Shown: positions 19,593 through 60,852 of the stretch, in pieces
How positions within the stretch are numbered: position 1 is the stretch's first letter
Layout of the letters: each line of letters begins with the position of its first letter
Virus record (IMG/VR): IMGVR_UViG_3300037851_000141
Location: 256,001 to 320,000 of that record
DNA from: a virus
Taxonomy: Duplodnaviria > Caudoviricetes
DNA: 64,000 bases
Strand: one strand, 5' to 3'
The notes under the pieces: model-generated
Databases searched by the model: none
The model's input: only the letters and a program-made list of their open reading frames with translations
Told to the model about the DNA's origin: nothing
Position numbers and translations under genes: made by a program

Positions 19593-19713
19593 ACCCGTGT
19601 AGCTCAGATGGCAGAGCGAGAGCCTTCTGCGGAGATTATAGGAATATATTGGGTTCGAATCCCAATCTCTGCTCCAAAGCTCTAGGTCGGAGGTTCAAGT
19701 CCTCTCACGGGCG
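19593..19713 (+). tRNA. Interrupted tRNA, most simply Arg(UCU) (alternative register Trp(CCA)), with a 48-nt insert in the anticodon loop
   Basis: ACCCGTG/CACGGGC acceptor, GCTC/GAGC D stem, AGAGC/GCTCT anticodon stem, GGAGG-TTCAAGT-CCTCT T arm. Deleting 19629-19676 gives the loop CT-TCT-AA. Confidence 0.85.
19629..19676 (+). ncRNA. tRNA-Gly-like minihelix nested in the anticodon loop
   Basis: GCGGAGA / T-TATA-GGAA-TATA / TTGGG-TTCGAAT-CCCAA / TCTCTGC-T-CCA. Confidence 0.8.
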
Positions 19714-19719
19714 CTAACA

Positions 19720-56727: not shown

Positions 56728-57083
56728 ATTTGTTTCCTTATGAGTTGGATTATATGGTCTGGTTTTAGAAAGTCAAATGAAAGGAATCGGATTATCTTGG
56801 ACTACAGCAGACACCTTAAGGAGAGTCTTGATCGCACCCTCATTACGCAGATCAGTCATTCCATGTTGATCGGCACGCTTGGCATATTCAACTAATCCCT
56901 TGAGCAGAACCCGAACCATAGAGGCTTGAAGGGTACGATGCTCATTTAACAAAGCAACAGCAAGCCCTTCAACAACTTCCTTTTCAGAACCCATGACATT
57001 GACCATTCTTGAGAATTGTTCAATCAGATTGCGAACTTCCTCAGTAATGTCAGGATTCATGTTCGTCTCCTTGTTGGGTCTGA

Positions 57084-58007
57084 TTATAGGCCGCGATTGA
57101 AGATGTCAACAAAGGTCTTCACCGAATCCGCCCAATTGTTAGACTCTCCCGTATAATCAGTCCGTCCATGACACTTGCGGAAAAGAACTGGCAAATGAGA
57201 CTCGGCACCAACTTGAACGTAAAGACTGTCAGTATGAAGAGTTATCTCACCACAGACAGCATCACCAGCAGGATTAGAACGAACATCATACTTGTCATCA
57301 TCCAACTTCATCATCTTACGAGCAAACAACTTAAGGAATGTCTTTGCCTTGATATGTAGTTCCTTCTTGGCAAAATAATCTGGAGCCTTTTCCTTATATA
57401 CCTTAATCGCTTCATCCACCCTGGTAGCATAAAGAGTCAGGGTATTAGCATCAATGTCAAGTTCACCATTCTCACTAACTATAACATCATCAGCAGTAGC
57501 AGGCACATCCTTGAAAGTATAGGTCCGACCATCCTCTGTGACTGCCGCCCTAACAGTAGTAGGTTCATCAGTCTTGACAGGTTCAGTCTTTCCACTCTTA
57601 TATTTGATATACTCGGGATGCTCAACTACCCAAGCAGGAGGCCGCCCCCGATTACCAAGAGTATAAGTAGCGCCCTCGGGACCAGTAAGAACAACTGGCT
57701 TGGATTCAACTACTGGAGTCGGTTCATTTTTAGCGACGTTAGTATCAGCAACTTCAGTAGACTTGGTAGAAACATAGTCAGGATGCGAAAGAACCCACTC
57801 AGGAACTCGCCCACGTTGACCAATCACATAGAGACGGTCATTAGCCTTATCGACAATGACCTTTGAATCAGGATACTCAGACTTGGCAACTAATACCCTA
57901 TACTTGAGTGATGATTCAACCCAGGCTGGAACCCGCCCACGTTGACCAGTTGTATAGGTTGCGCCATCTGGACCCTTGATTACGACACCGGCTGGAATGG
58001 TAGACAT
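57084..58007 (-). CDS. Protein with three tandem H-NS-like DNA-binding motifs plus a C-terminal domain
   Basis: YTTGQRGRVPAWV, YVIGQRGRVPEWV, YTLGNRGRPPAWV. Confidence 0.65.
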   Translation of the reverse strand: MSTIPAGVVIKGPDGATYTTGQRGRVPAWVESSLKYRVLVAKSEYPDSKVIVDKANDRLYVIGQRGRVPEWVLSHPDYVSTKSTEVADTNVAKNEPTPVVESKPVVLTGPEGATYTLGNRGRPPAWVVEHPEYIKYKSGKTEPVKTDEPTTVRAAVTEDGRTYTFKDVPATADDVIVSENGELDIDANTLTLYATRVDEAIKVYKEKAPDYFAKKELHIKAKTFLKLFARKMMKLDDDKYDVRSNPAGDAVCGEITLHTDSLYVQVGAESHLPVLFRKCHGRTDYTGESNNWADSVKTFVDIFNRGL

Positions 58008-58117
58008 GATTGGACTCCTTTGTATGGCCGGATTATATGATCTGATTTAGAGAGTCAAGCACCCATTTTCCTTTTGACTTACAGTTATTTCATAGTATAG
58101 GCGAACAAGATATAAAA

Positions 58118-58150
58118 ATAAACCTAACCCCTTTTGAGGATTAGGTTTAT
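58118..58150. terminator. Terminator closing the 58.1-58.8 kb RNA locus
   Basis: ATAAACCTAACCCCTTTTGAGGATTAGGTTTAT. Confidence 0.7.
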
Positions 58151-58159
58151 GACAGACTT

Positions 58160-58290
58160 GGAAGCAGAGGATCAGGCGAATAGTACTACCAGACACGCCT
58201 GCCGCTCGTTGCGTTGCATATAACGGGGGTTTTATTCTCAAGGAAGTTTCTTCAACATGAGAATGGTAGTTTCGTTTTTATCATGCTTCC
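58160..58290 (-). ncRNA. Structured RNA motif, copy B
   Basis: GGAAGCA/TGCTTCC closing stem, ATTCTCA/TGAGAAT, CAGGCG/CGCCTG, ACTACC/GGTAGT cross-pairing. Confidence 0.7.
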
Positions 58291-58303
58291 AAGTTGTCAA
58301 TGA

Positions 58304-58486
58304 TGGTGGCCCTTGTAGGATTTGAACCTACTGCCAAGATGAATGTAGGAAGCCACTCCTTGTTTCATTCCTGGCGTCTACCTGACTTCCGCAATGGCTT
58401 TTTATCAATAGGAACTTAGTCTTGTTCCGGTTATGCGGTACTGCGGGCCATATATAGAGTTATCAAAAAACTTCAGGTAGTGGGCC
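58304..58486 (-). ncRNA. tRNA-like element with a CCA end and oversized arms
   Basis: GTAGG-TTCAAAT-CCTAC T arm followed by AAGGGCC-A-CCA; 5' GGCCC; CTACCTGA/TCAGGTAG and GCCAGGAATGAA/TTCATCTTGGC arms. Confidence 0.6.
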
Positions 58487-58674
58487 GAGGTTTTGTCTAT
58501 ACCCCGGTTTCTCCTGCCAGAGCGGACAATTTGTGAAAAGATGGAGGCAGCCACCTTTTCTTTTGTCGTCCCTATAATGCCCACTGTTCCTTATCAAAAA
58601 ACCAGAGAAGGTTCCCCTGATTTTTTATACAACTGATGGGTATCTAATCCACCAGTTGTAAAAGAAAGGACTAG

Positions 58675-58791
58675 GGAAGCAGAGGATCAGGCGAACAGTA
58701 CTACCAGACACGCCTGCCGCGAACTTTGCTTTGTATTCTCAAGGAAGTTTCTTCAACATGAGAATGGTAGTTTCGTTGTTATCTTGCTTCC
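58675..58791 (-). ncRNA. Structured RNA motif, copy A
   Basis: Same helices as copy B; starts just downstream of the promoter at 58806-58833. Confidence 0.7.
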
Positions 58792-58805
58792 TTTCGTCCT
58801 GCTGT

Positions 58806-58833
58806 ATCTTACTGGTCTTTTTTAGTTTGTCAA
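58806..58833 (-). promoter_or_regulatory. Promoter of the RNA locus
   Basis: TTGACA-N16-TAAGAT. Confidence 0.6.
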
Positions 58834-59043
58834 GAGCCGTTTCAATCGTAGTCAAGCCGCTTCTTTTTTCTACGATCCTTCCGCCGCAAGTCCTTTTTAG
58901 TAGGCTTCTTAGGAACAGAATAGCCAGGACCAGACTGCCGCTTTTGCTCAATCTCACGCTCGCGGCTGATCTTGCGGATGTCTCGGGCAATATCCTTCAT
59001 TTTGTTTCCTTATGCTTTGGATTATATGTCTATTTTCACAGAG

Positions 59044-59448
59044 TCAAACGATTTTAGCCCAGCCCGCTTCCGTAGTAAAATAAAACTTGATACATCCAAA
59101 CTTCTTCATCAACTCATAACAACGATTACAAGGCTTGGACAACTTAATTTCACCCTGCCTATTCAACCGTATATTGATTATCTCCCAACTCTTACGAAAA
59201 TCAATAATACCTTTCAACTTGGTCAAAGCCCTAAATTCAGCATGACGAGTGGAAGGCAACGCAGTATCACGCTTACAACGATAACCAAAATAACTCGGAG
59301 GCTCACCAAAATCATTCATAGCATACCCAATAATACTATCATCCTGAACAATAAAAGCCCAATGAAGAAACGACCCAAACGTGGTAGGATGCTTCGGCAA
59401 AGTCCTATGAGCCGTTTCCAAAGCCGAATCCAAAAGTGCTTTCTTCAT
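59044..59448 (-). CDS. Zn-dependent deaminase-fold protein
   Basis: HAE ... SKPCNRC (HxE / PCxxC). Confidence 0.8.
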   Translation of the reverse strand: MKKALLDSALETAHRTLPKHPTTFGSFLHWAFIVQDDSIIGYAMNDFGEPPSYFGYRCKRDTALPSTRHAEFRALTKLKGIIDFRKSWEIINIRLNRQGEIKLSKPCNRCYELMKKFGCIKFYFTTEAGWAKIV

Positions 59449-59462
59449 GGCTCACATTATAC

Positions 59463-60005
59463 CTACTTTTCCAGCGTGTCAACTTCCTTTTTCTCAATAG
59501 CTTTCTCTAACCTGTCAAGTTTCTCAAGAATAGAGTCTGTCCGTTCATTCATCTTCTTAATCGGATGCTCATACAACTTAATGTCAGGAGTCTTATTTAC
59601 AAGTTCAACCTTCCTAACCGCAGACATATTAAAACCCCTATATGTTGCCTTTGGACGAGTAGTAATCTTAACAACAGTCTTCTCCCTATCCACTAAAGCA
59701 TCAGTTCCAGTTAAAGTAGTCATATCATTATTGGAATCTACATAATAAACTGCTCCACTCTCATGCTGCTCAATCGGCACGTAAATAACCTTATAGTTCT
59801 CCTGTATAGCATCATATTCGGCTGACAGATTCCCACAATGATTCATAGGAACAATAAACATCAAAGCACCTACAATAGCCAGACCTAAAAAGATTAACAC
59901 AGATTTGGGAGAATCAAATGTTATCAGATTAACAATAAAACCAATACCAAATAAGAAAATAAATACTCCACCCAAAACAAAACTGATAATAGCAAGCAGT
60001 TCCAT
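59463..60005 (-). CDS. Membrane protein (two N-terminal hydrophobic helices)
   Basis: Two hydrophobic stretches in the first 55 aa. Confidence 0.65.
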   Translation of the reverse strand: MELLAIISFVLGGVFIFLFGIGFIVNLITFDSPKSVLIFLGLAIVGALMFIVPMNHCGNLSAEYDAIQENYKVIYVPIEQHESGAVYYVDSNNDMTTLTGTDALVDREKTVVKITTRPKATYRGFNMSAVRKVELVNKTPDIKLYEHPIKKMNERTDSILEKLDRLEKAIEKKEVDTLEK

Positions 60006-60549: not shown

Positions 60550-60852
60550 TGGTGGGACGAGTGGGGTACGATCCCACGACCTAATGCTTCTTACAGACAC
60601 CATCTTTCGATGAGCATTTCTGCTGTCTGCTTGGACTTTCTCTTAATCTTCGGCATTATCCGGTCAGATCCTCCGTGTAAAGTCTCTACACTTGCCCGAT
60701 AGATATTTTACTATCTATCTGCTAGCTCGGGATTGCCATCAGCATTATCTGTTAAGGTTTCCCCGAATTAGCGGAGTTTTCAATTAGGATTTCTCCTAAA
60801 GGTTCCAATTTAGTTCAAAAGGCATTTGCTCTACCTACTGAGCTATCGTCCC
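60550..60852 (-). tRNA. tRNA-Lys(UUU) interrupted by a group I intron after position 36
   Basis: GGGACGA/TCGTCCC-A-CCA; AATGC/GCATT stem; exon join gives CT-TTT-AA; atypical T loop ATCGTAC. Confidence 0.88.
60590..60816 (-). mobile_element. Group I self-splicing intron (tRNA-type, IC3-like), 227 nt, no ORF
   Basis: P1 UUUU|GA...UUGGAA; core CTAATTCGGGGAAACC, GGCAATCCCGAGC, GTGTAGAGACT, AAGAGAAAGTCCA; terminal G. Confidence 0.88.

Follow-up and report, generated by a model that had tools for sequence, protein, structure and literature searches.

On the minus strand of an uncultured 332-kb freshwater jumbo phage, a canonical T arm runs into an encoded CCA end, and a long hairpin takes the position of the anticodon arm. 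The locus raises the questions of which RNA carries this end, where that RNA begins and what it could do for the phage. The source genome was a 331,849-bp IMG/VR phage record (35% GC; 22 tRNAs called by ARAGORN at default settings), and the window, that is, the whole 64,000-nt stretch analyzed, covered its bases 256001-320000. The original prediction described a 183-nt cloverleaf from 58486 to 58304 with a giant D arm. Inspection of the minus strand located the T arm GUAGG-UUCAAAU-CCUAC at 58331-58315 as expected, followed by AA, GGGCC (58312-58308), A (58307) and CCA (58306-58304), with the end at 58304. The strict T-arm motif occurred 27 times in the genome compared with about 1.5 times in shuffles, which argued that it was not due to chance; 18 of the 27 copies were in called tRNAs, and the copy of the tRNA-like RNA was among the nine outside. 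The 28 nt from 58331 to 58304 were identical to the 3' end of a genuine, ordinary tRNA(CAU) in another phage, and this was the sole match of the 28-mer in IMG/VR. The anticodon position was also as described, a bulged arm without a 7-nt loop, which folding showed to be a 43-nt bulged hairpin.

Relatives and transcription unit of the locus

In blastn and megablast searches, the region had no match among 50,697 phage records, and scans of IMG/VR with the downstream 307-aa protein, the upstream 180-aa protein and the terminase gave no relatives. A 21-mer of the repeat module had no match in IMG/VR, and pattern scans of JGI metagenomes with a 27-mer and a 22-mer found nothing. A collinear groundwater metagenome contig (L008) was retrieved via the neighbouring 307-aa protein, and L019 (JGI), L020 (Logan) and the more divergent L021 were found via a 52-aa basic ORF. 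L020 was identical to L019 over the tRNA-like RNA, and the orthologue set consisted of our RNA, L008:1602-1747, L019:3365-3510 and L021:3233-3371, which came from separate metagenomes. The gene order was the same in all four lineages: basic ORF, TAAGAT promoter, structured RNA and terminator. The very basic (K/R-rich) 52-aa ORF at window 58842-59000 (-) was located directly upstream of the promoter of the RNA in 4/4 lineages, with 49 of 52 residues identical in L008 and 87% identity in L019. It belonged to no Pfam or PHROG family, and its product is a candidate RNA-binding partner.

The minus strand in the neighbourhood of the tRNA-like RNA carried a series of small genes that all had individual sigma-70-like promoters. 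The unit of the tRNA-like RNA contained the following features.

58806..58833, minus strand: sigma-70-type promoter, TTGACA-16-TAAGAT (sequence motif)
58663..58804, minus strand: repeat module A (insertion relative to L008)
58596..58660, minus strand: two 5' hairpins, the second terminator-like with A-tract/U-tract (folding)
58475..58591, minus strand: conserved, structured 5' leader domain of about 115 nt (covariation, four orthologues)
58450..58474, minus strand: U-rich linker from the leader to the tRNA-like RNA (contains both indels relative to L008; length varies among the orthologues)
58304..58449, minus strand: tRNA-like RNA, 146 nt (four orthologues, covariation, z -4.36)
58151..58303, minus strand: repeat module B, directly after the CCA (absent from L008 and L019, present in L021)
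58118..58150, minus strand: intrinsic terminator of the unit, 14 pairs (terminator scan)

The 28 nt of the promoter showed no difference in L008, L019 and L021 retained the TAAGAT -10 element together with a TTGAC -35 element, and a terminator was found 3' of the tRNA-like RNA in 4/4 orthologues. The 711-nt interval from promoter to terminator had a folding z of -6.96. In the two 5' hairpins, 8/8 stem substitutions relative to L008 left a standard pair. The terminator-like hairpin in 58596-58660 was not called by the consensus terminator scan. It was located at window 58596-58625 (-), at L008:1426-1455, at about 3196-3228 in L019 and at about 3053-3090 in L021, in 4/4 lineages between the promoter and the conserved RNA block, with its pairing kept and its sequence altered, and it suggests attenuation or regulated read-through. 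A terminator-like hairpin after the promoter complicates the transcription of the block, which counts against the explanation preferred below. A 267-nt contig (X4) of 3x depth jumped from 58452 to 58787; it would fit a 146-nt form right behind the promoter and was not counted as evidence.

The alignment of our sequence with L008 covered 6,580 positions, 8.2% of which differed. The 295-nt block 58599-58304 contained 2 substitutions compared with 20 in the median 295-nt window and was the most conserved block of the 6.6 kb alignment; windows with at most 2 substitutions made up 0.13% of the sliding windows, and all of them were at the locus of the tRNA-like RNA. The substitutions of the transcript that fell in predicted stems retained a standard pair in 9/9 cases. 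The RNA was single-copy in the genome, with 167.7 bits for its own model and 17.6 bits for the next match. A 59-codon GTG ORF at 58584..58405, which had been noted as a caveat, does exist. It was rejected as a gene, with its frame in L008 shifted by a -1 indel at 58470 and a +2 indel at 58457, and no gene was called across the region in L008, L019, L020 or L021. Because of the conserved block, the pair-keeping substitutions, the frameshifted ORF and the lack of a called gene, the element was considered neither a decayed tRNA nor a coding gene.

The placement of the RNA between two RNA copies was true of this genome, but both copies were missing from L008. These copies, the repeat modules A and B, were structured, 95-98% identical to each other and without an Rfam match. 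In the comparison of our sequence with L008, one insertion joint fell exactly at the CCA end, and the 5' site in L019 and L021 was occupied by a different module with similar ends. Since the copies are insertions absent from a close relative, their tie to the tRNA-like RNA is incidental, and the sequence comparison indicates that they are cassettes that come and go and not part of the tRNA-like gene. In their behaviour, the modules resemble cassettes aimed at both ends of this gene.

Start and fold of the tRNA-like RNA

The 3' GGGCC had two possible partners, the GGCCC strands at 58486 and 58449. GGCCC occurred in the genome at 0.13 per kb per strand, and because it is this rare, two copies within 183 nt are unlikely by chance (P ~3e-4). 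The isolated 183-nt stretch 58486-58304 did fold into the originally described cloverleaf (-59.2 kcal/mol, z -4.17, with 0/200 dinucleotide shuffles as stable), but this was not the conserved form, in which the inner GGCCC was the kept acceptor strand. In any leader-bearing precursor, the pair probability was 0.87-0.98 for the inner strand and 0.002 for the outer strand, since the outer GCCCAC paired with an upstream GUGGGC. The outer strand was preferred only when the RNA began exactly at 58486. The outer acceptor and the 8-bp stem together were intact at 13/13 pairs in our sequence and the near-identical L008, at 10/13 in L019 and at 6/13 in L021, which had no outer GGCCC. The inner acceptor and the three-pair D-like hairpin were intact at 8/8 pairs in all four orthologues with two double compensatory changes; the acceptor read GACCC/GGGUC in L019 (double compensatory) and GGCCC/GGGCC in L021. 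The divergent orthologues settle the choice of the acceptor partner in favor of the inner GGCCC, and the 5' boundary at 58486 with its giant D arm had to be given up, the outer pairing being broken in L019 and L021. With the inner GGCCC (58449-58445) as the conserved acceptor strand, the RNA has a length of 146 nt. The annotation is corrected to 146 nt rather than 183 nt, behind a second, previously undescribed conserved RNA domain.

That the mature RNA, or an alternative state of it, takes the shape of the 183-nt giant-armed cloverleaf seems quite unlikely. In this form, the linker CUACCUGA would pair with UCAGGUAG, either as the base of the 100-nt arm or as a precursor pseudoknot that masks the D-like loop. 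The isolated 183-mer adopted the fold with a probability of ~1.0, the two GGCCC copies within 183 nt were improbable by chance as given above, and the duplex of the linker and the D-like segment reached -12.8 kcal/mol in our sequence, which 5% of the shuffled linkers equalled, and -22.6 kcal/mol in L021, which 0/500 shuffles equalled. The same duplex, however, reached only -6.9 in L019, where 67% of the shuffles did as well, and of the 13 pairs of the 183-nt form, 3 were broken in L019 and 7 in L021, where the outer GGCCC itself was missing. The outer strand also hardly paired with the 3' end once the leader was attached (probability 0.002), and no promoter able to place a 5' end at 58486 was found. 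The 8-bp stem may still be an alternative or pseudoknotted state, which the duplex energies supported in our sequence and L021 but not in L019.

The 146-nt RNA was composed of the following parts.

58445..58449, minus strand: acceptor 5' strand, the inner GGCCC (pairs with 58312-58308, 5/5 in four orthologues)
58437..58443, minus strand: junction heptamer CAGUACC (invariant, four orthologues)
58389..58438, minus strand: arm 1', about 50 nt, variable in sequence with a conserved 5-bp base (alignment)
58376..58386, minus strand: D-like mini-hairpin GUC-AGGUA-GAC with an invariant AGGU loop (3/3 paired in four orthologues)
58333..58375, minus strand: arm 2 at the anticodon position, 43-nt bulged hairpin without a 7-nt anticodon loop (folding)
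58315..58331, minus strand: T arm with G53-C61 and the loop UUCAAAU (loop invariant; two stem pairs covary)
58304..58314, minus strand: AA, acceptor 3' strand GGGCC, A73 and CCA (sequence)

The consensus of the 146-nt core from the four orthologues had 27 pairs in six helices. Among its cells, 95.2% were paired compared with 85.6% in shuffles and 32-49% in slid controls. Pairs altered on both sides numbered 8, compared with 3.8 +/- 1.3 in shuffles (1/500) and 1-2 in slid controls, in a test that drew on only three independent lineages and on a structure taken from the same alignment. Compensatory changes occurred in five helices. The acceptor strand changed from G-C to A-U in L019, the base of arm 1' was CCGCA/UGCGG in our RNA, CCUCA/UGAGG in L019 and CCAAC/GUUGG in L021, and the D-like hairpin was GGC-AGGUU-GCC in L021 (U-A to G-C). 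In arm 2, the base GCCA...UGGC was conserved, and the interior was replaced in L019 and L021 with a long hairpin retained. The original claim of a genuine non-decoding tRNA mimic, as opposed to a decayed tRNA or a translated gene, was borne out by this conservation and covariation among the orthologues.

The heptamer CAGUACC, the AGGU loop, the base of arm 2, the T loop, the AA and A73 were invariant, and arms 1' and 2 kept their positions and rough lengths with their sequences replaced. The invariant parts and the replaced arm sequences together indicate that selection preserves the top half of a tRNA and the junction, not the decoding body. The GG of the D-like loop may dock on the T loop, as G18/G19 do. 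The acceptor consisted of 5 Watson-Crick pairs and two mismatched layers (G.A and C.A; U-A in L021), followed by A73. The encoded CCA was not universal: our RNA, L008 and L021 had CCA, and L019 and L020 had CUA.

The leader in front of the linker was itself a conserved domain. Compared with L008, it contained 1 substitution (G.U to G-C), and 9/23 of its consensus pairs were altered on both sides among the four orthologues. Its closing helix included the outer GGCCC(AC) at 58486-58479 and covaried, with GUGGGC/GCCCAC in our sequence, AAGUGG/CCACUU in L019 and GGCAG/CUGCC in L021. The leader by itself folded no better than shuffles (z -0.81) and had no Rfam match. Within it, CGACAAAG and CCAAAUCG were invariant.

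The heptamer TTGATAA was found three times near the RNA, at 58597, 58466 and 58408, as had been pointed out. Its genome rate of 0.37 per kb per strand gave about 0.11 expected copies against the 3 observed in a post hoc test. As a functional motif it was rejected, the linker copy being gone in L019 and L021 and the copies having no consistent structural context.

Comparison with tRNAs, tmRNA, Y RNAs and T4 rnaC

The RNA had the canonical T arm of a tRNA (5 bp, G53-C61, UUCRANY loop), and in place of a 7-nt anticodon loop it had a bulged hairpin with a tetraloop. Detection by standard programs did not succeed: neither ARAGORN nor Rfam called the tRNA-like RNA, the latter neither at its gathering thresholds nor at E <= 10, and no tRNA call was made on it by RF00005. 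A hidden canonical tRNA was rejected after 1,749 single-deletion variants had been run through ARAGORN at relaxed settings, which gave only a poor Ser(tga) with mismatches. A tRNA ancestry of the 5' part was likewise rejected, as its 13/17 match to the 5' end of tRNA(CAU) was equalled by 805/2000 shuffles. To judge from the sequence, only the 3' module is demonstrably tRNA-like.

The RNA had originally been considered no obvious tmRNA for want of G3-U70, and this was confirmed, since C3-G70 was found in 4/4 orthologues and ARAGORN at default settings and the Rfam tmRNA models found nothing. ARAGORN at an 80% threshold called a permuted tmRNA with the tag GPQYRITGTRLSSY ending in UGA-UAA; this candidate was rejected, its frame being shifted in L008. 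The YrlA model (RF02553) had no match over 57000-60000 at E <= 10 and matched genome 180460-180587 instead.

A functionless remnant of a tRNA gene or a recombination scar, for example the 3' half of a tRNA(CAU) or an attP-type fragment, would account for the 28-nt 3' end that is identical to a real phage tRNA(CAU), for the missing anticodon and for the failure of any single internal deletion to restore a canonical tRNA. Such a relic is hardly likely at all, as the RNA belongs to the most conserved block of the locus, has compensatory changes in five helices and retains a dedicated promoter and terminator in four lineages. The phage is without a tyrosine integrase, and a 25-mer of the 3' end was found in 0/185,579 species genomes, which argues against an attP core derived from a host tRNA. 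A Y RNA partner of the phage Ro60, or a tmRNA-like or otherwise aminoacylated RNA, is very unlikely. The phage does encode a TROVE/Ro60 protein, bacterial Y RNAs do carry tRNA-like domains (PMC7824862), and a permuted tmRNA was called at the 80% threshold, but the YrlA model picked another locus, the free ends of the RNA are at the acceptor and not at a Ro-binding stem, and the tmRNA reading is opposed by the missing G3-U70, the negative default detectors and the frame shift of the tag in L008.

Partial likenesses to known systems were nevertheless found. Like the YrlA Y RNAs (RF02553, bound by Ro60/Rsr), the tRNA-like RNA is a tRNA-mimicking non-coding RNA in a genome with RNA-repair genes; YrlA has a capped acceptor and a Ro-binding stem made from its RNA ends, whereas here the ends form the acceptor with ACCA. 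It shared the acceptor and T arm, the reduced D region and the big non-tRNA body with the tRNA-like domain of tmRNA, but it had no G3-U70, resume codon, conserved tag frame or pseudoknot series. A tRNA-like module on a longer non-coding transcript is also known from mascRNA/MALAT1 and the tRNA-like RNAs of the gammaherpesvirus MHV68, which are cleaved by RNase P, receive CCA and are not aminoacylated (PMC8457004, PMC4337559). The mascRNA and MHV68 RNAs are eukaryotic, compact cloverleaves that have no homology to the tRNA-like RNA.

The closest likeness in architecture was found in rnaC of phage T4 ("species 1" RNA, 139 nt, annotated in AF158101 at 70908-71046), the function of which is still not known (PMC3014915, PMC9697503). 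This RNA had a z of -4.57 with 11 pairs covarying among four T-even phages, and it was found in 748 phage records, with no annotated feature under it in most of the listed matches. It had no Rfam family, its best match being tRNA-Sec at 17.5 bits. Both are phage-encoded, non-decoding RNAs with a tRNA frame, and the order of the helices was equal in the two consensus folds: the acceptor helix is interrupted, the D position holds a long arm, and an extended hairpin without an anticodon loop stands at the anticodon position, followed by 1 nt and then by a canonical T arm leading into the acceptor 3' strand. However, T4 rnaC is in a tRNA cluster, is cut from a tRNA precursor and has no encoded CCA, whereas the tRNA-like RNA lies about 115 kb away from the main tRNA cluster and has a promoter and a terminator of its own, an encoded CCA in 3/4 lineages, an extra D-like GG hairpin and a preceding conserved leader. 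The covariance model of rnaC (R1) had no match to the tRNA-like RNA in the window, and the model of the tRNA-like RNA (R2) found nothing in T4 and only itself in its own genome. Because the models failed in both directions, the tRNA-like RNA is a new variant and not a member of the rnaC family; judged by the predicted folds, it matches rnaC in architecture without family membership. T4 RNA C has been without a known function for about fifty years, and the RNA described here provides an independent example with no sequence similarity.

Possible roles and the RNA-repair equipment of the phage

The conserved, covarying structure without an anticodon is probably the product of a single-copy conserved gene for a 146-nt non-decoding mimic of the top half of tRNA, which would be matured by RNase P and CCA addition and might, more speculatively, act as a decoy. 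The RNA would present an acceptor helix of 5 bp together with A73, a canonical T arm, and a D-like hairpin with an invariant GG that could build the elbow of a tRNA, and because two long variable helices replace the D and anticodon body, it could not read a codon. It would be transcribed from its own sigma-70-type promoter, behind the structured leader, to the intrinsic terminator. Host RNase P would most likely cut between 58450 and 58449 and free the leader; this site has U at position -1, and RCCA forms the 3' end. The 3' end would then be trimmed and repaired or kept as CCA by a CCA-adding enzyme, a protein of which family is encoded by the phage at genome 192.7 kb. The product would be a stable RNA that shows the acceptor, T arm and elbow of a tRNA outside translation, and it may occupy or divert a protein that recognizes this half of tRNA within a tRNA-centered conflict, for which the gene content of the phage clearly equips it. 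Phage tRNAs are known counter-measures to tRNA-cleaving defences (PMC10264068, PMC11464382, PMC11555353).

A role as a substrate of RNase P and CCA addition fits the conserved acceptor, A73, T loop and D-like GG loop and the CCA-adding enzyme of the phage, as far as sequence evidence goes. The compensatory changes mark the acceptor, A73, the T loop, the GG-bearing D-like loop and the junction heptamer as kept parts next to two long arms that vary, which suggests that the conserved activity is recognition of the tRNA top half; the RNA also gives concrete constructs for RNase P, CCA-adding and pull-down work. Against this explanation, the acceptor helix has just 5 bp, below which come two non-Watson-Crick layers, L019 and L020 have CUA instead of CCA, and nothing singles out one protein target. 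Since the leader is equally conserved, the tRNA-like part may merely serve the leader.

The main rival of the decoy explanation, possible though unlikely, follows from the last point: the leader, with the preceding module, would be the product, and the tRNA-like domain would be a processing handle that recruits RNase P for an exact 3' end of the leader, as mascRNA does for MALAT1. The released tRNA-like RNA would then be a by-product. Processing of the long RNA was also the first of the roles originally put forward. The leader and the tRNA-like part are equally conserved (1 substitution each relative to L008), the leader covaries itself at 9/23 pairs, and about 25 nt separate the end of its closing helix from the acceptor; yet a minimal acceptor/T-arm helix would suffice for such a handle, while two arms, CAGUACC and the D-like GG hairpin are conserved, and the leader alone, with its z of -0.81, does not rise above shuffles. 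A rather doubtful extension joins the two domains into a two-part RNA device, in which the linker would pair with the D-like GG loop, and the cut by RNase P would both free the leader and unmask the elbow. The mimic would then serve as a decoy or adaptor, and a tRNA-end-targeting defence nuclease, a nucleotidyltransferase or the CCA-adding enzyme could be, with the same reserve, examples of its targets. If this were true, phages would have evolved tRNA-framed counter-defence RNAs of the T4 RNA C type on more than one occasion, and such RNAs would form a widespread class.

The phage also encodes Rnl1-like and Rnl2-like ligases, and a PNK-like kinase is located 1.6 kb downstream of the tRNA-like RNA. 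A TROVE/Ro60 gene was found at genome 189007-190695 (+), and a YrlA-like Y RNA candidate (RF02553, 47.6 bits with a cut-off of 69, E 7e-8) was found at genome 180460-180587 (+), in the tRNA cluster and 8.5 kb from the Ro60 gene. Together with the CCA-adding enzyme gene that follows, these have the appearance of a complete Ro60-Y RNA module carried by a jumbo phage. A tRNA-Lys(UUU) with a group I intron (RF00028, 49.1 bits with a cut-off of 50, E 1.7e-11) was found at window 60550-60852 (-), 2 kb upstream of the tRNA-like RNA and near the PNK-like kinase and the Rnl1-like ligase. Three tRNAs carried 45-48-nt inserts in the anticodon loop, at window 19593-19714 (+) and at genome 183007-183123 and 197790-197908, and scored 48.8-59.3 bits with Rfam. 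Their inserts shared UAUAGGAA, followed by a second, T-arm-like hairpin, and in the Trp tRNA gene, removal of the insert left an intact CUCCAAA loop. These inserts may represent small tRNA introns of a new kind or, alternatively, a mobile minihelix. A fourth tRNA-like gene at genome 198848-198953 had a different insert of 35 nt.
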